64,000 bases of DNA, taken from the NCBI GenBank assembly GCA_963804995.1, contig CAWDSK010000004.1:150505-214504 (forward strand), given 5' to 3'. A program made the translations under genes and the position numbers. Source of the stretch: an uncultured Acidobacteriota bacterium (GTDB lineage: Bacteria > Acidobacteriota > Terriglobia > UBA7540). Below are positions 1-15,810 of the stretch, piece by piece. Each line of letters opens with the position of its first letter. Position 1 is the stretch's first letter. Below the pieces are notes generated by a model. That model made no database searches. It was given only the letters and a program-made list of their open reading frames with translations, and was not told where the DNA came from.

Positions 1-322
1 CGCGCGTGGACAACTCACAAAGGAAGAAATGGCGCAGCCACTTGGGTTCACTTTCTAGCACTAGGGCAGCAGTCCAGTAATCCAGCTTGTCAAAATACTG
101 CGGTCCCGCAAAGCCGTCGATGTAGGCTCCATGCTTCGTGATCTGAACGAAGAACTCCAAATAGCGCTGGACGAATCGCGCCTTGTGTTCCGTCCAAATT
201 GGCTCTTGAATTCGCTTGTATCTGCGTGTTTTCACCTGAAGGGATGGGGGTAGGTCTGGAAATAGAGGGGCGGCATAAGGAGATTCCGTTGATTCGTTTG
301 CTCGACTTCCCTTCGAGTTCAT
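1..322 (-). CDS. tcmP: Three-Cys-motif partner protein TcmP (SAM-dependent methyltransferase-like), N-terminal part; runs off the window
   Basis: Manual translation from ATG at 322 (ATGA overlap with the DUF5131 stop): ...IWTEHKARFVQRYL...AYIDGFAGPQ; classic partner of DUF5131. Confidence 0.8.
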   Translation of the reverse strand, partial: MNSKGSRANESTESPYAAPLFPDLPPSLQVKTRRYKRIQEPIWTEHKARFVQRYLEFFVQITKHGAYIDGFAGPQYFDKLDYWTAALVLESEPKWLRHFFLCELSTR

Positions 323-1122
323 GAAGTACCTTTAAACTCTGCCTCCAAAGTCACCGCCAAGCTTCGCCGCAGGGCTCGGCCAGGTATGGGCGCTTCAGCT
401 GTGAATGGAAACTCATCGTAGGTCTTGCCAGACAGTTCCCGGCCCGTCTTCTTCTTTTGGACTCCTCCCCACTGCTTGAAAAAGAAGGGAACCTTATATA
501 GACGGCATTGGTGGAGCAGATTTCGGACCCAAAATTCCTGCATTGGTCTTGCTCCAGGTCCGCTCTCTCCGCCCACTATTACCCAATCGATATCGGAGAG
601 GTCAATGGGACCGAGGTCCTCAAGTAGTGGTTCTATTGATAAGAACTTCACTCCCGCTGGAGTATTACGCAGGTGTTCTATGCGAGGACTGCCGTGCTTT
701 ATGTTCTCGACGCTAACTCCCCACCAGATGTGACGGGTAGAGGTTGCAAATTTCAGCGGACCGTTCAACATTTGCCCCAGTCGCTCGGAGCGTTTTGTGA
801 GAATCTGGTACGTGTGCCAACTCGCTTTCATCATTACGCTAACGACCCTAAGGATGAATTCGTCGGGCACGTCCACGTGGAACAAATCGCTCATGGAGTT
901 TACGAAGACCATGCTTGGCGATGTCCACTCGAACGGCTCAAAGAGCTTCTCTGGAACGAGGCGAAGATCAAAGCCCAATTCGTATGGGTGGCCTTTCACC
1001 CCCCGAAACCGTTCGGCAAAGGTCTCGGCATAGCAGTGCAGGCAGCCTGGACTAACCTTTGTGCAACCCCGCACCGGGTTCCATGTCGTATCCGTCCACT
1101 CGATCTTGGTCTTTGATGCCAT
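319..1122 (-). CDS. DUF5131 / phage Gp37-Gp68 family radical-SAM-like protein
   Basis: TKIEWTDTTWNPVRGCTKVSPGCLHCYAE, FVNSMSDLFH, WVIVGGESG, FFFKQWGG motifs. Confidence 0.93.
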   Translation of the reverse strand: MASKTKIEWTDTTWNPVRGCTKVSPGCLHCYAETFAERFRGVKGHPYELGFDLRLVPEKLFEPFEWTSPSMVFVNSMSDLFHVDVPDEFILRVVSVMMKASWHTYQILTKRSERLGQMLNGPLKFATSTRHIWWGVSVENIKHGSPRIEHLRNTPAGVKFLSIEPLLEDLGPIDLSDIDWVIVGGESGPGARPMQEFWVRNLLHQCRLYKVPFFFKQWGGVQKKKTGRELSGKTYDEFPFTAEAPIPGRALRRSLAVTLEAEFKGTS

Positions 1123-1690
1123 CCTGAGTCTCAATTCTAACCATTATTTTGCCAGTTCGGTATACACAAGATCGTTTGAGGCGCATGTAGTTCTCTCTGG
1201 AGCTGAGGTAATCCAATCCAAGGTAACGTCGCCTTGGTCTTTCGCGTCGCACACGCGGGCTTGGCTGACCAGCGCGCAACCTTGCCTTCCAAATTTTGGA
1301 AACTTGCCCCGGCGGGCGCTTGGTCGGCTGGATGGGGAGTGTGTCGGTAAAACCTGTCCCCGCTTTGTACGGGTTTTTCGGGGAACACCGGTTCCCCCCG
1401 GGTACCGGTGTCAGGTGGCCTTCCTCACTGATAAAGGACTCCTGCTTTCCTATGCTATAGTCCGCAAGCTTCAAAGTTCCAACGCGGAATTTTGATTTCC
1501 TGTCCCCTCCTCTCGTCTCACGCAGTCCATTCTCAGATTCATCCTTCGGTCGTTGCGCACGACCTATTTCCGGCTCTGGGCCGGGAGGATGACGGGGAGA
1601 TGCTCGCGGCAAGCCATCAGAGAATGGCCGTTAAGCACGACCGTTTTCCAAATTCTGGAAATAGGGGGGGCAGGTAGGTGATTCTGCGAC

Positions 1691-1720
1691 AAAAAAGGGG
1701 CGCCGAAGGGGTGGCGCCCC
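1691..1720 (-). terminator. Probable Rho-independent terminator
   Basis: Minus strand GGGGCGCC-loop-GGCGCCCC followed by TTTTTT. Confidence 0.55.
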
Positions 1721-2036
1721 GCTGGGGTGAGGTGACAGTAACCCCAGCATCAGAAGTAATCGATTTGATCCGTAACCTTCAAGGCTAGCCCACCAGCAGC
1801 AGTGTGTCAAGCATACTAAACGCGCGTAGCGGACTACTTTGACTTTCTTCGCTTGCGGCTTGCCCTCGCGGTTCCGTTATGGCAGACTTGGGCGAAGCCA
1901 TCCGCCTAATGGCCGAAATTGACGCGGCCATTCCCAAGTGGCCGATGGAAAGCGGCTCATGTGCAAGAGTCCAGAGACAGTCTAGCGAAATATAAAAAGG
2001 CCACTGGCGAGCGCTCCTTAAAGGGGGTTTCCAGAA

Positions 2037-2426
2037 ATGACAGCACAGGAAATGGCCGACCGGATTCTCGACTTAATTGCAATGAGGAATGACACCACTT
2101 TTGCCGAAATCTTCAACGTAATCGGGGAAGAAGCGAAGGGCGACCTGATATGGGAAATCTCTCCCAACACGGTACTTTGGACGGGAATGTCGCAAGCACT
2201 GCTCGATGCCTTCAAGATAATGCATGACAAGATCATCCCTCATCCGACCGATTTCTTGGTATATCTCTACGATGGTGGAGCGCTTGACCTTCCAGTCGCC
2301 AAAACAATTTCTAGGACTGGGTACAAGAAACCACATTGGCTTCCCGTTGTCTTCCGCTTCAGAAACGAGGTAGAACGCCAAGGCCGAGAAAAAAAATACA
2401 TTGAGCGTGGTGACTGCGAATTCTGA
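2037..2426 (+). CDS. Hypothetical protein resembling small phage-satellite/pathogenicity-island proteins
   Basis: RBS-like AAGGGGG; motif LVYLYDGGALDLPVAK...YKKPHWLPVVF. Confidence 0.6.
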   Translation: MTAQEMADRILDLIAMRNDTTFAEIFNVIGEEAKGDLIWEISPNTVLWTGMSQALLDAFKIMHDKIIPHPTDFLVYLYDGGALDLPVAKTISRTGYKKPHWLPVVFRFRNEVERQGREKKYIERGDCEF

Positions 2427-2505
2427 TTGCTCTAGATTTAAGACGACACCACCACCGACCGCCACTTTCCAAATTTTGGAAACTGTCGCGCCTCGGCGGG
2501 TTCCG

Positions 2506-2904
2506 TCATGGGGTCGGGGCCGCTGCGACTCGGTATAGATCCGCCGACAATCTCATCAGGGCCTCGGGCGTCAACTGGTTTCGCGGCGAGAGGCCGAGCG
2601 CAGATGGCATTAGAGTGTCACCCGGCGCCGTCGGATTCTCGCCCATTATTTCGAGCAATTCATCCTCAAGTTGCGCGGTCGATGCCTCTGCTGGGTCGCG
2701 CAATGGCTCAAATAAAAACTGCATTGCCAACCCGCCGATCAGCGTGGCAAGAGTTTCCCGATAGACTTCCCCTTCGCACAACTCCCCGCGTTCGATCTTC
2801 GACGCGGACTCCGTACTAAGCCCCGCTTGCTGGGCGAGGGTTTCCTCTGTCCATCCTAATTCGGAAACGGCGCGGCGCAGGGCGTCCACGACATCGTTGG
2901 ACAT
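2506..2904 (-). CDS. XRE-family HTH protein
   Basis: AGGAGG RBS; LRRAVSELGWTEETLAQQAGLSTESASKIERGE. Confidence 0.7.
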   Translation of the reverse strand: MSNDVVDALRRAVSELGWTEETLAQQAGLSTESASKIERGELCEGEVYRETLATLIGGLAMQFLFEPLRDPAEASTAQLEDELLEIMGENPTAPGDTLMPSALGLSPRNQLTPEALMRLSADLYRVAAAPTP

Positions 2905-3045
2905 CGGACCTCCTGACTTTATTGTTTTTTGGAAAGCGAAGGCGGCTCGGCAGGAAGGACTTACAAAGAAATTATCGCATTGCGCGGACGATTCGGGGAA
3001 ACAAAATCTCACGGGGAGTTTCCGAAATTTGGAAAGGGATCTCGC

Positions 3046-3348
3046 TTATTCATTGTGACTCTTGAGAATGATGCTGTTCATTGGTCCCTGTACATCCGTC
3101 CTCGCTATCGCTTGGTCCCTGACCCTCAATACGTCACTCCGCGACTGCCTGTCACACCATGAGGTTTGGATTATTAGTTGCCAGTGGGGAAGTTGTGCAG
3201 GCTTATTCCATCGAGCTGTTGTGCCTTTGATTCCTATAGAACGCAGGGCCGCTATGAGCTTACCCTTGATGTCGTTTCTTTCGTCTTCGGATAGAGCAGT
3301 CCAATCTCGCATAGCTTGGAGTATCACACCACTCCGGGCCGGAAACAA
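3046..3348 (-). CDS. Hypothetical protein
   Basis: ~100-aa ORF filling the interval between palindromes 4 and 5; start uncertain. Confidence 0.5.
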   Translation of the reverse strand: MFPARSGVILQAMRDWTALSEDERNDIKGKLIAALRSIGIKGTTARWNKPAQLPHWQLIIQTSWCDRQSRSDVLRVRDQAIARTDVQGPMNSIILKSHNE

Positions 3349-3634
3349 GGGGCGAGAAATTCAAACTGTACCATCACCAGAAGTTTGGATTCCTTGGCTA
3401 CGGAGGCACGAGTACGCTCTTTTGGTTCTCGTAACAGGTTGGGGGTTGATTCAGCCTCCAAGCTATTTTTGGATGATTTCTGGATTTCCAAATTTTGGAA
3501 AGTCGCTTGCTTCGCATTCCCAGCAGGAGTAATTCTGTAACAAATTTCGGTAGACTAGTTTTGAGAAACTTTGCGGCCGTTGAGCATGACTCCCACCTTG
3601 AGAGCCCCACCCAACGACCATAGGAGGCCGCAAC

Positions 3635-4111
3635 ATGAAGAACTTGTTTACTGGTTTACTTTGCACCATCATTCTCACCGTTCCCCGTGTGGCTGTCGCA
3701 GGGGACAACGGTTACAAGGTCAACTATGACGGCGGCTCGTTTTCTGACTTGAAGGCCGGAACTGGCTTGCAAATGTACCTCGAACCGCATCAGATCCGGT
3801 TCGTGAAAGATAAGGCGGATATAGCCACAATTCCGGCTTCCGCGATTACTGAAATCAGCTACGGCCAGGATGTGCACCGCCGAGTCGGAACGGCGGTTGC
3901 TGTAGGGATCGCCTCATTCGGAATAGGCGCACTGACGGCGCTCAGCAAGTCCAAGAAGCACTTCATCGGCCTGACCTGGGCCAATGGTGACCAAAAGGGT
4001 GGGCTTGCAATACAGTGCGACAAGAATAACTATCGCGGCATCCTAGCCGGGCTAGAGGGCATCACCGGCAAGAAGGCCGTCAACTCAGAGACGATGACGG
4101 TTAAGAATTAA
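3635..4111 (+). CDS. Secreted hypothetical protein
   Basis: AGGAGG RBS, signal peptide (AVA), globular mature region. Confidence 0.75.
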   Translation: MKNLFTGLLCTIILTVPRVAVAGDNGYKVNYDGGSFSDLKAGTGLQMYLEPHQIRFVKDKADIATIPASAITEISYGQDVHRRVGTAVAVGIASFGIGALTALSKSKKHFIGLTWANGDQKGGLAIQCDKNNYRGILAGLEGITGKKAVNSETMTVKN

Positions 4112-4534
4112 GGCAACCCTCTCCAGCGTGCCGGTGAGTGTAACGCTGAGTGCTATACTGATAATCGAGGTCCCCGAGGCATAGGCCACCCTCAGATTGA
4201 AACCCACCCTCCTCATGCCAAGCCTCGGGGCCTCACGTTTAACTCGCCCTGACCCTTTCCAAATTTTGGAAAGCCAGCCGCACCCCCCTCTATTCCACGC
4301 TGGCGACCGATGGCTCCCTCTGCGGCCTGTTTTGCCTGCGCCCCTTCTTTAGTTCCTCGCGAAGTTTCAGGCCAAGCCCTACCCTCTGGTCGTAGTCAAG
4401 GTGTCGGCGCAGTAGGTTCATGGCAATGCGGAGTTCCACTTTGGATGGTTTCTGGTATGATTGCAGCCTTCAACCTAGGATTGGCCCCCACAGTTGCTTA
4501 GATTCTGGGATGAAAGTAAGGGAAAAGGGAAACG

Positions 4535-4798
4535 ATGAGACCTAAACGAAACCCTGCGGAGGCATCTCTGAAGTCGGCGATTGGCTACCCTGAAGTGTGC
4601 CCCTATTGCAATAAACCGGGCCTTGTTCAATCCGTTTCTGGCAGAAATCTCGTATGCCAGGGATGCGGGCGCATCGTGGTGATAGACGAGAATGCTCTAG
4701 CGGCACAAAACAAGATGGCAGAATATCGGAATTCGCTATCGAGCCGCAGAAATCTCAGGCATACGCGCAGTCGAAGTGCCATAATTCTGGCCGCCTAG
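4535..4798 (+). CDS. Small Zn-ribbon protein (putative)
   Basis: CPYC...CQGC, purine-rich RBS. Confidence 0.45.
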   Translation: MRPKRNPAEASLKSAIGYPEVCPYCNKPGLVQSVSGRNLVCQGCGRIVVIDENALAAQNKMAEYRNSLSSRRNLRHTRSRSAIILAA

Positions 4799-4899
4799 CC
4801 CTGCCTTGTGGCATCGAAGAAATTTGGTCAAGGTTGGGGAAGTCCTTCGGATCGCGCAACCGTAACCGACTCCACATGCGGTCCCGTTCCCACAATCTC

Positions 4900-5260
4900 T
4901 GTTCCCATGTTTTCGGCCCCCCTCCCGCTTCGCCACCTGAAGGGCGCGATTTAGGGTGATTTCCTCACTTGCCACCTTCTCGGCAAGTTCGGGGCGCTTT
5001 GTCTACAGTTCGCGGGCACGGGCCATTGTAGCTTCGGATACGCCAGCTTCTTTGGCCGACGTGCAATGAGATTTAGAGCCGTGGTGTTTCTTGCCCGCAC
5101 CAGGTCTCCCATCAACTGAGGGGAGACCTGACAATCTCTTACCATCCTCTGTGCGGGGTTGTTCCTTGGTTGCCTTGCTGCGCTTCCCATTCGATTCAGC
5201 CTTGATCTGTGCCTGCCGCTTCGCCCATTGGTTGCTCTCCAGTTCCATCTTTACCTGAAG
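4900..5260 (-). pseudogene. Remnant of a phage ParB-like HTH protein with an in-frame TAG; limits approximate
   Basis: AKEAGVSEATMARAREL*TKRPELAEKVASEEITLNRAL read across the stop at 5003-5005. Confidence 0.4.
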
Positions 5261-5641
5261 GACGGAAATCGTTCCCGGCTGGTTGCGCCAATAAGAAATT
5301 TCCGTAGTAATGCGTGTGCTCCAGAGAGCGTCCTGAGCACCCCCGCCTGGTCTTTTTTTCGACACCGGGGGGTGTCGCCCACCGCCTGCGCCCAGGCCCA
5401 CAAACCCCAGCAAACATGCGGGTATTGGCGCAGTCCAGCGCATTCCAGTAATACTCTGCGTGGCAATGCACACAAATAATATATTTGGAAGAGTGTAACC
5501 TATTTACTTCTGCGCAGATGTGGGGCAGTCAATCTAGGACACCACGCCGACTGGTACGGTTCGTGCGGGGAAAGGTTACGGGAAGAGCGGATGTGTCAAC
5601 ACCCGTTCTTCCCTAACCACACAGCCTACACAGGAGGCAAT

Positions 5642-6070
5642 ATGGCTACCCAGAGTTTAACCACCTACGTTACTCATGGCAACCCAGACCCTCGGCGTAT
5701 TCCCCTAGATGATCCTCGGGTTCACAGACTCCCGCCGGGGCCAGAAAACCCCGACCTGAATTTTGACGACTACCAGTTCCAGGGCGGGCGGACGGGGCAC
5801 CAAGTTGTCGATACGGTCGGGGGCGGTGGTTGCACACCAATCCCTGCCATCCGACTCGCTGTCGAAGAATCGCAGGGACACCGGTTCGCATCTGCGGCGA
5901 CGGCGGAAAATCTTCGCAAGATCCCGCGCCTTCAAATGCGCGTCTTTACGGCCTTTTACTGGGGGTTCGCCACACATGCGGAGATCGGTTCCGCACTCGG
6001 GATCACGCGCCTTAATTCGAGGGTTTTGCTTTGCAGGGCACGAAAGCATCTTGAGGCGCTGGCACACTAA
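5642..6070 (+). CDS. Protein with a C-terminal sigma-70 region-4-like HTH
   Basis: AGGAGG RBS; LRKIPRLQMRVFTAFYWGFATHAEIGSALGITRLNSRVLLCRARKHL. Confidence 0.55.
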   Translation: MATQSLTTYVTHGNPDPRRIPLDDPRVHRLPPGPENPDLNFDDYQFQGGRTGHQVVDTVGGGGCTPIPAIRLAVEESQGHRFASAATAENLRKIPRLQMRVFTAFYWGFATHAEIGSALGITRLNSRVLLCRARKHLEALAH

Positions 6071-6614
6071 ATTGTGCTTTGCGGTTGTAACGTCTGTCTC
6101 TACAGTCAACTTATCAGAGGATTCACACCCGCCGACCAATCGGCAGGTTTCGAGTGGTGAAAGCGCAGCGTGGTCGAACAACCGGGGTCGGCACCTGTCG
6201 GCCCCGGCTTTTTAAAGATTGATCTCCCCTCCATCGTAGCCCCCAGGAGCGCTCTAAAGCCGGGGTCGGCTCCCAACCGACCCCGGCCCACCTTTCCAAA
6301 TTTTGGAAAATTGGCAATCGGCCTGCCCATTATCGGGCGAAGTTATCCGCGCAGTTTGGCGGGGAATGGCCGAACGGCACGTCACAGTCTACTCATATTG
6401 TGACATTGGAACCCCGATTGCCGTTTGTAAGTCCTTTGGATTCGGTTCTACAAAATCTCATATCTCGTGTGTAATGTGACATTCGCGGGTAATTTGAGAC
6501 TCTGCATTGCCTACCTTGGTGTGGATGTCCGCCCATACCCCTTGGTGACAGGGGAAAATTTCGCGCACCACGGTTGACCCCTGTGCCACTGAGCGCACCA
6601 CCGGAGACGCACCA

Positions 6615-6659
6615 TGAGGCTAAGCCCTTTGTTTGTGAGGCTAAGCCCTTTGTTTGTGA
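6615..6659 (+). repeat. Perfect 21-bp tandem duplication upstream of the recombinase
   Basis: TGAGGCTAAGCCCTTTGTTTG x2 plus TGA. Confidence 0.9.
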
Positions 6660-6722
6660 TGTCACGTTACATACCATGTGTGGCATTCAAGTTGCTCATC
6701 TCCCAGTCGGAGGGAAACCCAC

Positions 6723-7304
6723 ATGGCACGCTCTAACCGGCAAGCACTCACGACGGACGAACTTCTGGCAGTCCTGAAGGTAGCCAAGGAGCACAGCACG
6801 CGGGATTGGGCACTTCTGGTCACAATCTATCGGCATGGCTTGAGGGCATCGGAGGCAGCGGCGCTAACGCTTGGCGACATGCAGGACGGTCAATTGACCG
6901 TGGCTCGGGTGAAGGGGTCACTTAAGACCACACAGCCGGTTTGTAAGCACCCCGGCCAACCGCTGCTTGATGAGGTCAAGGCATGGGCGTCTTGGATGAA
7001 AGGGCGCCCGCAAGATGGAAGTGGAGCAGTGTTCACTTCCCGGAAGGGTGGGCACCTGACGCGGGAACAGGTTTATCGGATATTCCACCAGCACGCTGAG
7101 ACCGCCAAACTCCCACCGGAGAAGCGCTTTGTCCACGTCCTGAAACACAGTCTGGCGAGTCACCTAATCGCGGGCAATGCGAACCTTGCAATGGTGCAGG
7201 TAGCCCTCGGGCACGCCAGCTTGTCGAGCACCCAGGCTTACATTCACGTTTCCGACGCCCAGGCCGCAGTCGCCAGTCAGCGAGCGTTGATGTCACTCTT
7301 CTGA
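6723..7304 (+). CDS. Short (193 aa) tyrosine recombinase, FimB/FimE-like, catalytic domain only
   Basis: RDWALL..YRHGLRASE, RVKGS, HVLKHSLASHL, LGH..LSSTQAY. Confidence 0.88.
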   Translation: MARSNRQALTTDELLAVLKVAKEHSTRDWALLVTIYRHGLRASEAAALTLGDMQDGQLTVARVKGSLKTTQPVCKHPGQPLLDEVKAWASWMKGRPQDGSGAVFTSRKGGHLTREQVYRIFHQHAETAKLPPEKRFVHVLKHSLASHLIAGNANLAMVQVALGHASLSSTQAYIHVSDAQAAVASQRALMSLF

Positions 7305-7505
7305 TTCCTGGAATGCCGCTTAAAATGGCCCGCTGTCGCGTCCAGTGCCACGCAGACGCACGCGGGGTAAAAGCGCAAGGGGTTCTGGGCATGGCTAAGG
7401 ACGAGTACCAGTTGAGTACCACTTCACCGTTCTAGTGGTCCTTTTGCGTGCTTTTCGGTTGCCAAGCGTGCCGCAATATCAACGAGATACCCTAGTGCTG
7501 CCAGA

Positions 7506-7550
7506 TTCGTAAACCGAGGGTCACCAGTTCAAATCTGGTCGTCGGCTCCA
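7506..7550 (+). other. att site: 3' half of tRNA-Thr(CGT), right boundary of the island
   Basis: TTCGTAA anticodon loop, ACCAG-TTCAAAT-CTGGT T-arm, GTCGGCTCCA end; no 5' half present; tandem GAGTACCA(G/C)TT arm-like repeats at 7403-7424. Confidence 0.85.
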
Positions 7551-7676
7551 ATCCCTAAATTGTTTTCCAGAGCAGTAATTCCTTGCAGCACAGATTGGAA
7601 GGACGGGAGCGGTTCGCAAGCCGCCCGCACGAAATTTCGAGCGATTGCCGCAGACCAATCGGGAGGCAGTAAACGA

Positions 7677-9626: not shown

Positions 9627-11861
9627 CTAGTGGTAATCGGCCAAATCAACATCGGTGGCGTTTTCACCATCGAAGCGGAACACCAGCCGCCAATTGCCCG
9701 ACACCGAAACCACCCATTCGCCCTTGCGCTCGCCCACAAGTGGATGCAATTGATAACCGGCAATGTTCATGTTCATCGGGCTCGAAGCGGTGGCAAGCGT
9801 CACCAGCAGGCGGCGCAACCGCTTCACCTGTTGAGCGCTCACCCCTCGTGTGGTAGGGTCGGGAACTGGCGCGGCGGCTCCGAGAAAGCTCCGAGCCCCG
9901 TTTCCAGCTCCCGCCACATCACACGTAGCGTGCGGATTTCCCGCACTACGCGTTCCTGCACACTTCACGGCAAGGGTTATGGGGCCTATCGGGTCGGGGC
10001 GGCTGCCCAGGAGGATGACTGATGGACCACGCGGTACTCGTGGAAGAGCCCGAGCGTGCCATACAGCCACTCCTTACGCCACCGCTTCCATCCGAAGCCT
10101 GGGCGTTGTCTGGCCCTCGCCAAGTGGCACCGAATCTTCTTCTCTACCCAGTCGCGGATATACGAGAAGCACCGGCTGGAGTGCCCGACCGCAAAGTAGT
10201 TCACCCAGCCGCGCAGAATGGGATTGATCTGCTCGATCAACCCCCTCACAGGCTGAGAGCGATAGCTCCGGAAAACTAGCTTGAGCTTGCGTAGCAATGC
10301 CGTCCGCTTCTTGCCCCGCGGCGTACGCAGCGGCATCCATCGGCCCCGCCGACTGCGGATGCGACGGAACTCAAACCCCAGAAATCCGAAACTCTCTCCT
10401 TGCTGAAGATCCACCCTCCGGCTTTTCTCCTCGTTCACCTCAACCTGCAGCTTGGCCAACTCCTCCCGTAGCCGCTTTTCCACTGCCTTGCGAAGCCAGG
10501 CCTGCCGGGGATGAGCGTTCACCAGAACCACCAGATCATCGGCGAATCTGGCATATTCGACGTTCATCCACCGCCCCTCGCGGGTGACTTCCTTCGCCTT
10601 TTCCAGCATCTTGTCCACCTCATTGAGGTACACGTTACTGAGCAAGGGCGAAATCACCCCGCCTTGCGGAACACCCTGCTTCCCCGACGCCTTCAGCAGC
10701 AGTTTGAGCAGCCCTAGGACCTCGGTGTCGTTCACTCGCCGTGCCACCTTCTCCAGTACGAGGGAATGTCGAACCGTATCGAAGTAGGAACGCAAGTTGA
10801 GATCAACGACAAAGGTCATGTGCCGCACGATTGCCTCCGAGACGCGTTGAATCGCAGCGTGGGCTGACTTCTTCGGCCGGTAGCCAAACGATCCCGGTTG
10901 GAAATCGGCCTCAAAGATCGGTTCCAGGATCAGCTTCAACGCTCCCTGGACCACTCGGTCGCGAATGCAAGGAATCGAAAGTTGGCGAACCTTTCCGCCC
11001 TCCTTCGGAATCCCTACCTTCCGCAGCCGTTGAGGTCGATATCTCCGCTGCACCAGCTCCTCGCGAAGCTGTTCGAGAAATCCCTGCAAGCCTTCAGCCT
11101 CGATTGCCTGGAACGTGACCCCATCTACTCCTGGGGCTCCCTTGTTCTCCTTAGCTAGCTGATACGCTTCCCAGAGAGTTTCTCGTTTGCAGACGTGGAC
11201 ATACAACCCCCAGAATCGCCAAGTCGGTTCAGCCTTCGCCTTGACGTAAAGTCTTCGCCGCAGGTCTTGCAGCTTAAAGGGCGCTTTTATCATTTCACCC
11301 CTGCCTCCCATGTTGGCCAAGACTTGCTGTGCAGCAAGGCCCCTTCGCTCCATGGGCGTTACCCCACTTCGTCGCTACTTCGAGCCTAACCGCCACCGTC
11401 TCGCCGTCAGCCGATTTCCCGTTGTCTCCGGTTATACGGCCTACCCTGCTCCACCGATCTCTCGATGGGACGAGGACGGTTTCTCCAGTTGCTTGACATG
11501 CCCTTGCCACCGTGCTGCCCCTACCACCCCGCCGGAGTGACATGTTGTCTCGGTCAGCCCACGTCATGCCATGCTGCCTTCGCCCCGAAGGAGAGGGCTC
11601 GGCCTCCGGATTTATTTTTTTGTCGAGGCCACCTATGGGTTCACTTGCGTTACGGCCCGGTGACTCGCTCACCATCCCTTGGATGGCTTTGTCGGTCAGC
11701 TTCATCCGCTTCGTTTCCTCCACGGATGCGACCCAAGCTACAAGGCTCCTGACTCTTGCCTTGGTGGGACTAACTCCCACTGAACATACCAGCCTTTGCT
11801 GGACACACTCCCCCGAGGTAAAAAGCCGTTCCAGCCCCTTATGACGAAACCGGATTATCAT
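9627..11861 (-). CDS. higB: HigB (RelE-family) toxin split by a group II intron; exons 11861-11809 and 9852-9627
   Basis: Joined exons give a 92-aa MIIRFRHKGLERLFTSGDTRGVSAQQVKRLRR...WVVSVSGNWRLVFRF..DVDLADYH. Confidence 0.9.
9853..11808 (-). mobile_element. Group II intron 1 (1956 nt)
   Basis: 5' GTGTG at 11808; domain V/VI-like region ending ...CCCGACCCTAC at 9853; internal RT ORF. Confidence 0.92.
9986..11293 (-). CDS. ltrA: Group II intron reverse transcriptase/maturase, no endonuclease domain
   Basis: GAPGVDG, RDRVVQ, PQGGVISPLLSN, RFADD, INPILRGWVNYF. Confidence 0.95.
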   Translation of the reverse strand: MIKAPFKLQDLRRRLYVKAKAEPTWRFWGLYVHVCKRETLWEAYQLAKENKGAPGVDGVTFQAIEAEGLQGFLEQLREELVQRRYRPQRLRKVGIPKEGGKVRQLSIPCIRDRVVQGALKLILEPIFEADFQPGSFGYRPKKSAHAAIQRVSEAIVRHMTFVVDLNLRSYFDTVRHSLVLEKVARRVNDTEVLGLLKLLLKASGKQGVPQGGVISPLLSNVYLNEVDKMLEKAKEVTREGRWMNVEYARFADDLVVLVNAHPRQAWLRKAVEKRLREELAKLQVEVNEEKSRRVDLQQGESFGFLGFEFRRIRSRRGRWMPLRTPRGKKRTALLRKLKLVFRSYRSQPVRGLIEQINPILRGWVNYFAVGHSSRCFSYIRDWVEKKIRCHLARARQRPGFGWKRWRKEWLYGTLGLFHEYRVVHQSSSWAAAPTR

Positions 11862-13998: not shown

Positions 13999-14098
13999 TT
14001 GGAGTTTCTACATTTAGGTCTGGCAAAGTAAGATTTCTATTGACAGACCTCCCTGATTTCCGTTACCTTCCTCCTGAGTCCTGGCTCCGGAGGTTAAC

Positions 14099-14434
14099 TT
14101 GCCTGACGATCTCAAGGATTCCATTCTTTCGATATTCGAGGCCTCACTGGATGCCCAGTTGCGGGCGGTTCGCCGTCTCCGCGGCGGTTCCCCAGCCCCC
14201 GCCCCGAGGCCGCGCCGCACAGGTCTGTCCCAAGTGGACATGGCGTACGACATACTCAAGAAGGCCCGTACCCCCTTGCACATTTCCGAACTCCTGGCGC
14301 GCCTCCGCGCCGCCTTCCACGTCACCGTCGATCGCGAGAGCCTGGTCTCTTCGCTGACCAAAAAAGTCGCCCGCGGCGATCGCTTCCTGCGTACCGGGAA
14401 GAACACTTTCGGCTTACGTCCGGAGGCCCGATGA
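14099..14434 (+). CDS. IS-associated winged-HTH accessory protein
   Basis: DMAYDILKKARTPLHISELL..RESLVSSLTKKV...NTFGL; ATGA overlap with the transposase. Confidence 0.7.
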   Translation: MPDDLKDSILSIFEASLDAQLRAVRRLRGGSPAPAPRPRRTGLSQVDMAYDILKKARTPLHISELLARLRAAFHVTVDRESLVSSLTKKVARGDRFLRTGKNTFGLRPEAR

Positions 14435-15810
14435 CTCTGTTCGCCGCCTGGTCGGAGATCGTGGCGGACTGGGCCCCCACTTTTCCCCAGCAGCGCACCC
14501 TGCAGCGCGCCGTGCGCCAGGCCCTGGGCGCCTTGGTCTGCGTGGGTCGACGCTGTCTTTCGCGTATCCTCTGGACCCAGGGCCGCCAGCAGCGCAGTTG
14601 GTCGAGCGAATACTTTCTCCACTCGCGTTGTCACTGGGAACCGCAGACGTTGTTTGCCGGCGTCTGGCGCCGCGCCTTGCCCTATTGTCCCGGCCGCCTG
14701 GTGGGCGTGGCCGTCGACGACACCCGCCTGCGCAAGACCGGCCGCGCCATTCCCCAGGCGCGTTATCACCGCGATCCCCTCTCGCCCCCCTTTCATGTCA
14801 ACCTCCTGCGCGGCGTGCGCTTTCTGCAAGCTTCCCTGCTGCTGCCCCTGCATCGGCACGCCCCCGCCAGCTGCCGCGCTCTGCCCGTGCGCTTTGAAGA
14901 GGCGGCGCCGCTGAAAAAGCCCTCCCGCAAGGCGAAAGAGGAAGCCTGGCAGGAATATAAAAGGATGCGCAAGCTCCACAACCTCTCGCAGCGTTTTGTG
15001 CAGAGCGTGGCCCCCTTGCGCCAGGCGCTGGATGCGGCCGGGGGTGGGGCCAAGCTGCTGGTGCTGGCTCTGGATGGCAGCTTCTGCAACCGCACCTGTC
15101 TGCGCGCCCCCCGCGATCGCACCGAGTTGATCGCCCGCGCCCGCAAGGATGCGCGCCTCGGCTTTCGCGCTCCCCAGCCTTCTCGCCGCTTTTACGCCCT
15201 CTCCACCTTTACCCCCGAACAGGTCCGGCAGGACGAGTCCCACCTCTGGCAGCAAACCAAGCTCTTCTACGGAGGCAAGCGCCGCCGCCTCCGTTATAAA
15301 GAGGTGTCGCAAGTCTACTGGCGTCGGGGCGCCGGCCAGATCCCCCTGCGGCTCTTCGTCGTGGCTCCTACCCCCTATCGCAAACGGAAGAGCTCCAGAC
15401 TCTACTACCGTCAACCGGCCTACCTGCTGACCACCGACCTGCGGCACTCTGCCCCTCAGTTGCTGCAAATCTACTTCGACCGCTGGCAGATCGAAGTCAA
15501 CCACCGCGACGAGAAGGAGACGCTGGGTGTCGGACAAGCCCAGTTATGGAACGTTAACGCCGTGCCCAAGCAACCTGCCCTGGTCGTGGCCGCCTACAGC
15601 GCGCTGCTCCTGGCTTCTCTCCAAGCCTTCGGCACCGAGCGTGGCACGGCCTATCAGGCTCTGCCCCGGTGGCGACGCAAGGCCCACCGCCCTTCCTGCC
15701 TCGACCTCGTCACCCTGCTGCGCCAAGAAATGGTCGACCACCCGGAATGTCCCCAATCTCTGGGCTTCCAACTCACCGACCGCGCCCTCACCCACGCCGC
15801 TGATGCATAA
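14431..15810 (+). CDS. DDE transposase (IS701/DDE_5-like)
   Basis: VAVDDTRLRKTG, ALDGSF, YFDRWQIEVNHRDEK. Confidence 0.9.
   Translation: MTLFAAWSEIVADWAPTFPQQRTLQRAVRQALGALVCVGRRCLSRILWTQGRQQRSWSSEYFLHSRCHWEPQTLFAGVWRRALPYCPGRLVGVAVDDTRLRKTGRAIPQARYHRDPLSPPFHVNLLRGVRFLQASLLLPLHRHAPASCRALPVRFEEAAPLKKPSRKAKEEAWQEYKRMRKLHNLSQRFVQSVAPLRQALDAAGGGAKLLVLALDGSFCNRTCLRAPRDRTELIARARKDARLGFRAPQPSRRFYALSTFTPEQVRQDESHLWQQTKLFYGGKRRRLRYKEVSQVYWRRGAGQIPLRLFVVAPTPYRKRKSSRLYYRQPAYLLTTDLRHSAPQLLQIYFDRWQIEVNHRDEKETLGVGQAQLWNVNAVPKQPALVVAAYSALLLASLQAFGTERGTAYQALPRWRRKAHRPSCLDLVTLLRQEMVDHPECPQSLGFQLTDRALTHAADA

Follow-up and report, generated by a model that had tools for sequence, protein, structure and literature searches.

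The window analysed here is a 64,000-nucleotide stretch of DNA from an uncultured Acidobacteriota bacterium (assembly GCA_963804995.1, contig CAWDSK010000004.1, hereafter C4, positions 150,505 to 214,504). It begins inside a 14.85-kb integrated element, referred to below as the island, which lies at a tRNA-Thr(CGT) gene and extends approximately 7.3 kb to the left of the window. The two ends of the island are marked by perfect 51-bp copies of the 3′ end of this tRNA gene (C4:143209-143259 and C4:158010-158060), and it carries an array of 17-bp palindromes, which probably serve as docking sites for a dimeric protein. The island boundary and the palindrome copies in the window are as follows.

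1..7556: right half of the 14.85-kb element at tRNA-Thr(CGT)
7506..7556, plus strand: attR, the duplicated 3′ end of tRNA-Thr(CGT)
1286..1302, plus strand: palindrome copy, one mismatch at the outermost base
1645..1661, plus strand: palindrome copy, one mismatch
2466..2482, plus strand: palindrome copy, exact
3019..3035, minus strand: palindrome copy, one mismatch, centre base inverted
3485..3501, plus strand: palindrome copy, exact
4256..4272, plus strand: palindrome copy, exact
6293..6309, plus strand: palindrome copy, exact

The first-pass annotation had recorded these seven copies, and all of them were recovered at their positions, each with at most one mismatch on the better strand and with mutually unrelated flanks. 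No further match was present in the window at up to three mismatches, and shuffled sequences averaged 0.12 and never exceeded 2, as against the 14 strand-matches observed. The impression that the motif does not occur beyond the island was borne out by a genome-wide count. In the source genome (7.55 Mb in nine contigs, 92% complete), ten sites were found at up to one mismatch and still ten at up to two, all of them within C4:144734-156813 and hence inside the element. The three additional copies lie to the left of the window at -5770, -2348, and -787. Neighbouring copies are 359-3422 bp apart, and shuffled island sequence yields 0.01 palindromes versus the ten observed.

The site had been described as an asymmetric 7-bp core between short arms. 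It is better read as an 8+1+8 palindrome, the consensus of which departs from symmetry at the centre base alone, where this is unavoidable. Most copies are aligned (8 of 10 share the centre base and point one way; two-sided binomial p of about 0.11). Four of the ten sites deviate from the consensus inside the central 7 bp, and the arms vary once. Three A-to-G changes fall at one equivalent half-site position, on either arm, which fits the expectation for a dimer site. The island half-site is TTTCCRAA, with T at -8 in 19 of 20 half-sites and G at -3 in three of 20; position -9 is random, and conservation stops at 17 bp. Within the palindrome, the 13-bp core TCCAAAWTTTGGA has a 6+1+6 architecture. 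Flank variants of the half-site are ATTCCAAA, AGTCCAAA, and TTTCCRAA.

No second array was detected in the samples of related genomes searched. Among 137 genomes of the order, only the source genome has more than one 17-mer site. A 15-mer was matched in 15 of 401 genomes of the class, none with more than two copies except the source genome, and 16 of the single-site regions from these scans contained neither a cluster nor shared genes. In another family of the class, 173 of 331 genomes had a match to the 13-mer, at most five times per genome and with no second cluster among the matches listed; these counts are about those predicted from hexamer frequencies (0.5-0.8 per genome).

The palindrome core in a family of large phages

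The 13-bp core also occurs, dispersed, in a family of large phages, which was first found by an exact 17-mer scan of 2.9 million viral contigs. At least 120 viral stretches matched, mostly AT-rich chance matches. Among nine viral records examined whole, only G466 had more than one site, and a GC-flanked scan yielded 14 stretches (12 new ones analysed), none of which is related to the island. G466 is a complete 97-kb phage with ten sites at two mismatches from the 17-mer and 24 sites at one mismatch from the core, compared with a shuffle mean of 0.1. The core was counted 20 times in G472, 10 times in G474, and 8 times in G470, which are further whole phage records, and 0 times in controls. These phages are uncultured and 89-104 kb long, and carry the sites dispersed 8-24 times per genome, i.e., at 0.08-0.25 per kb versus 0.67 per kb on the island. 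Relatives of G466 were then gathered with ParB homology, and not the motif, as the criterion, and at least two exact cores were present in 8 of the 14 loci retrieved, which are not independent (several are near-identical, and they represent about five lineages).

G466, G472, and G470 have most core genes in common and possess 24-28 tRNAs; an acyl carrier protein and an orphan ParB are also carried by the family (G466 L297-L301, G472 L333-L337, G470 L327-L332). In G466 and G472, the centre base of the site is G or C besides A or T, and sites 3-22 nt from an ATG account for 13 of 20 in the former and 13 of 17 in the latter. Two sites flank the ParB gene of G466, at a distance of about 25 bp before the start codon and of about 90 bp after the end of the gene, and the phage ParB profile matches solved ParB, Spo0J, and Noc structures as well as PHROG 1033. 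Candidate binders besides ParB are a 204-aa phage protein, whose four aligned members all have the site in frame, and a 259-aa phage protein. For the latter, the nearest named Atlas clusters are DUF1016/ParB with a helix-turn-helix (HTH) and DUF3102, with scores of 0.85-0.86 that give a lead only. The capsid protein of the family shows 25-28% identity to distant records only in the phage collection, and no published description of the family was found in a literature search.

A tblastx comparison of the island with the phages gave four marginal matches only. Integration of the island into the phage tRNA-Thr(CGT) was considered and ruled out, the attachment core being mismatched. It is suggested by gene sharing, however tentatively, that the phages infect the island's host. 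Another mobile region of the source genome (C5:1304904-1309125) combines a 26-tRNA array with two genes that have counterparts in the phages, one RtcB-like (70% identity to the G472 gene) and one HNH (50%), and a LexA-like gene is 51% identical between the phage family and the source genome. The phage acyl carrier protein is uninformative on host (65% identity to the source genome, 61% to Leptospira). No spacer-like match was seen, and the phage capsid gene was not found in the 401 phylum genomes searched.

Two further phages, G473 and G471, are otherwise unrelated to the G466 family and have mainly ParB in common with it. G473 (L319-L321) carries TGACA-N3-TGTCA six times, and G471 (L322-L326) carries ATAATNATTAT eleven times.

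Genes of the island and the search for a cognate protein

Starting from the tRNA gene, the island encodes a 398-aa integrase, an HTH_17 excisionase-like open reading frame (ORF), small cargo, a 303-aa orphan, and a 333-aa rep-like protein, followed by a Cro-like ORF, TcmP, DUF5131, short cargo genes, a sigma-4 HTH ORF, and a 193-aa recombinase. The Cro-like label (98 aa) is a reading of the translated sequence. The N-terminal domain of the 333-aa protein belongs to a conserved family present in phages and small islands, and a role in replication may be proposed for it from its genomic context. Genes and gene remnants in the window are as follows.

319..1134, minus strand: DUF5131 gene (PF07505, E 4e-96; TIGR04474, 143 bits versus a cut-off of 53)
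1430..1560, minus strand: GGDRKS-type fragment of a phage ParB-like/HTH gene (six-frame reading; no Pfam hit)
1949..4445: cargo block of about 2.5 kb with four ORFs and four palindromes
2037..2426, plus strand: 129-aa ORF, PHROG 7134, function not assigned by PHROG
2506..2904, minus strand: XRE-like HTH ORF, below the Pfam cut-off
3635..4111, plus strand: 158-aa ORF with a signal-peptide-like start and no family
4856..5248, minus strand: broken member of a ParB_N-HTH(-MT-A70) phage family, with an in-frame TAG at 5003-5005 and without the N-terminal ParB domain
5591..6070, plus strand: ORF with a sigma-70 region 4 HTH (PF08281, over the cut-off)
6723..7304, plus strand: 193-aa tyrosine recombinase, catalytic domain only, with HxxK replacing HxxR

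As had been noted, the four intervals between 1661 and 4256 hold one ORF apiece, in the orientations plus, minus, minus, and plus, one of which (3046-3348, 100 aa) has no family match and may not be a gene. The claim that all copies are intergenic did not hold: the copy at -2348 lies inside the 333-aa rep-like gene, and that at 1286 lies within the open frame of a ParB-type remnant. Other palindromes are located upstream of the xis-int and cro-rep operons. The 158-aa ORF has a homologue in another locus (L363, 30% identity) with no palindrome nearby.

The island has traits of satellite-type (PICI-like) elements, namely attachment sites at a tRNA, an integrase, and excisionase-like and putative replication genes, and a PHROGs scan of its 21 ORFs revealed no packaging or capsid-hijack genes. 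An Rfam scan of the island returned the tRNA only. TcmP, which lies upstream of DUF5131, forms with it a pair that matches the PADLOC candidate defence system PDC-M41 (PDC-M41A/B); a literature search on DUF5131 and TcmP found no relevant paper.

Profile scans of the island ORFs detected no intact ParB or DUF3102 gene. In the source genome, PF02195 and a further alignment match only the chromosomal ParB, and hidden Markov models of nine candidate phage regulators gave no significant match on the island (best E 0.068). The 303-aa ORF is a singleton without an Atlas match (pLDDT 47.6) and without a profile match to the phage candidates. Two broken ParB-type genes are present, each containing a long palindrome that is single-copy and lies in the variable segment preceding the HTH. 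The fragment at 1430-1560, which we take to be of the ParB-like/HTH family although it has no profile match, contains a 25-bp palindrome at 1471-1495, and the gene at 4856-5248, with 40 relatives at E of 0.001 or below, contains one at 5101-5130; both are unlike the 17-mer. A role of the broken ParB-like gene as the binder found no support, given that its in-gene palindrome is single-copy and that, in three of three viral relatives checked, neither the island palindrome nor any other dispersed array is present.

Rep-family loci also lack the array: none of 75 loci of at least 5 kb (1.09 Mb) holds three or more copies or two exact ones. Some rep-family phages (L239/L240, L243-L246) have their own dispersed palindromes, many in coding sequence, such as GTGCAGTCCTGCAC nine times in 20 kb and GTCCA-N5-TGGAC four to five times. 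A search for DUF3102 in five rep-family phages with other palindromes was negative.

What may bind the palindromes

The palindromes are best explained as docking sites for a ParB/DUF3102-type dimer that has no intact gene on the island, to which a probability of about 0.6 is assigned; approximately half of this weight falls on the phage family as supplier and the remainder on recent loss or another donor. We infer binding, the kind of binder, and its function from the confinement of the sites to the island, the dimer-type variation, the 6+1+6 core, and the dispersed core in the phages. One homodimeric HTH protein, either ParB/KorB-like or DUF3102-like, would use the ten palindromes as loading or operator sites, contacting each half-site TTTCCRAA, and would coat or regulate the element, probably as an excised circle. 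It may be supplied in trans by the core-sharing phage family or another element, or its gene may have been lost recently. An operator or parS-like array served by an island protein had been among the original suggestions; the array part fits, but no island binder was identified, only the broken ParB-type fragments.

Several findings weigh against this explanation. The site and the phage ParB do not vary together: the ParB-bearing phages G473 (50% identity) and G471 (38%) lack the site and have different palindromes, and even among site-positive phages the HTH region of ParB varies, so that the phage ParB is a candidate rather than an established binder. The phage half-sites, which read (A)TTCCAAA or AGTCCAAA and lack G at -3, differ from those of the island outside the core; in G466, 33 of 48 have A at -8 and none has G at -3. 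Since the family was reached via the motif, a 13-bp match could be coincidental, given the thousands of phage families. An unrelated phage gene, which reads as DUF3102-like and fused to an MT-A70-like domain, holds the 17-mer once in exact form; the word can thus emerge independently. Moreover, island ORFs of 303, 150, 109, 104, and 100 aa belong to no family, which leaves room for an unrecognised island binder.

Tentatively, and by analogy with SGI1 and the parS sites of IncC, the island might mimic the site network of a helper phage. It would then be a parasite or defence element of the 89-104-kb tRNA-rich phages, with ten phage docking sites in 15 kb, placed beside the candidate anti-phage pair TcmP-DUF5131. 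On infection, the ParB or the DUF3102-like protein of the phage would be loaded onto the island; this could either withdraw the protein from the phage by titration or help the island to be switched on, protected, or segregated.

Comparable arrangements have been described in other mobile elements. In the IncP-1 plasmid RK2, the OB operator of KorB is TTTAGC(G/C)GCTAAA, i.e., 6+1+6, and the island resembles this system in having a palindrome of that architecture in many copies at varied promoter distances on one mobile element; RK2, however, encodes KorB, whereas an intact ParB-type gene is missing from the island, where binding is only predicted (PMC13768133). Thus, although a confined multi-copy palindrome is present, the island does not belong with KorB-OB or ParB-parS systems, because the element lacks a cognate ParB-family gene. 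The integrative element SGI1 likewise combines an integrase and replication genes with another element's sites and lacks the cognate protein, but it has two sites and a conjugative-plasmid helper (IncC) with a full parABS (PMC10954446). The island differs in having ten sites, a tailed phage family as putative donor, a binder and a host that are candidates only, and different outer bases; its likeness to another element's site system comes through the 13-bp core in four phage records. For BisD-bisS of ICEclc, ParB-type clamp loading on an integrated element has been proposed, in this case a large conjugative one that carries two bisS sites and itself encodes BisD (PMC12409273).

Searches of the open literature found no paper on an island mimicking a phage ParB or operator network, nor on a satellite ParB decoy, satellite operator mimicry, or phage ParB of Acidobacteria. 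Dispersed palindromes on mobile elements usually accompany their own ParB-type protein; on this island the array is dense and well preserved and the gene is missing. If a phage supplies the binder, site mimicry would extend from plasmid parS, as in SGI1, to the genome-wide regulatory or clamp-loading network of a phage, and the array would point to one 17-mer and a limited set of proteins for examination. If not, the island would offer another KorB-like array and a caution against naming such repeats cassettes.

Alternatively, one intact island protein may bind the palindromes, the match to the phages being convergence, which appears rather unlikely. Candidates are the Rep-like (333 aa), Cro-like (98 aa), XRE, and sigma-4 HTH proteins and the 303-aa orphan, a singleton that could conceal any fold. 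The position of the palindromes inside rep and upstream of the xis-int and cro-rep operons would suit such a protein, and the outer bases that differ between the island and phage consensus, together with the independent 17-mer in the unrelated phage gene, are consistent with convergence. However, the rep-family loci are devoid of the array, and the intact island ORFs give no ParB or DUF3102 signal.

It is improbable that the binder is a regulator encoded by the host chromosome or a DUF3102-like protein from another locus of the source genome (C5:732326). That genome does possess one such DUF3102-like protein in intact form (232 aa; Pfam 22 bits versus a cut-off of 24.4), which is weakly colinear with the 259-aa phage candidate (hhalign E 0.023, probability 2%), but no palindrome lies near this gene or elsewhere on the chromosome at up to two mismatches, and the 13-mer counts in the 331 genomes of the other family stay about at the hexamer expectation. 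The DUF3102-like gene (C5:732326-732679, L338) adjoins a gene that reads as a PD-(D/E)XK-like nuclease.

The small recombinase and other features

The palindromes had also been proposed to be crossover sites of the adjacent small tyrosine recombinase, forming a cassette or shufflon array. Integron, shufflon, and pdif-type cassettes and FimB/FimE inversion share with the island repeated short sites between unrelated genes beside a tyrosine recombinase. The overlap of tyrosine recombinases is usually 6-8 bp, a range that includes the 7-bp centre, and the four consecutive single-ORF intervals in mixed orientation, as well as the prevailing direction of the copies, would agree with crossover. However, the binding arms that flank the overlap are typically about 11-13 bp, whereas here they are only 5 bp around the 7-bp centre because conservation stops at 17 bp. 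The overlap is not identical among sites, given the four with central changes, and the centre base is free in G466 and G472. In addition, one palindrome splits the rep-like gene. A related stretch on contig C6 joins window positions 1887-1948 directly to 4446-4680 (a single comparison), so that the 2.5-kb cargo block was either gained or lost; its junctions, at about 1949 and 4445, lie approximately 290 and 175 bp off the nearest palindromes (1645-1661 and 4256-4272).

The recombinase itself points the same way. Models of FimB/FimE-type invertases score it at 68-69 bits, far below their cut-offs of 221-222, and HxxK, which replaces the usual catalytic motif HxxR of tyrosine recombinases, is present in all nine relatives whose motif was read out. 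A search of 301 class genomes gave 11 more copies in eight genomes, which with L011, L012, and L182 makes 14 relatives (35-87% identical). None of 22 stretches (424 kb) around them holds an array of at least three copies at one mismatch or two exact ones, although these stretches may not span whole elements. The closest relative (87%) lies in an 11-kb element at tRNA-Cys without such a repeat, and other small integrated elements that lack the palindromes also contain members of the family, in several cases next to tRNA genes (L011, L182, L279, L364-L368, L372, L374). With 5-bp arms, a variable centre, and a palindrome inside rep, a crossover array is highly improbable.

The role of the recombinase family might be that of a resolvase or of a DNA-binding regulator. 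A tandem 21-bp direct repeat lies upstream of the gene at 6615-6656, and a diverged motif block upstream of it is common to the island and L011. L012:1-2900 is a near copy of the L011 island DNA fused to low-GC sequence of another kind, with frameshifts, and is probably a chimeric assembly.

To the right of the island, translation reading places a group II intron-type reverse transcriptase ORF at 9986-11353 and an IS-like transposase ORF at 14014-15810. Elsewhere in the source genome, REP-like palindromes of the forms CACGGTCAG-N-CTGACCGTG and GCAGACCTC-N-GAGGTCTGC occur in clusters, such as those at C1:653654-660850 and C2:550360-561910.

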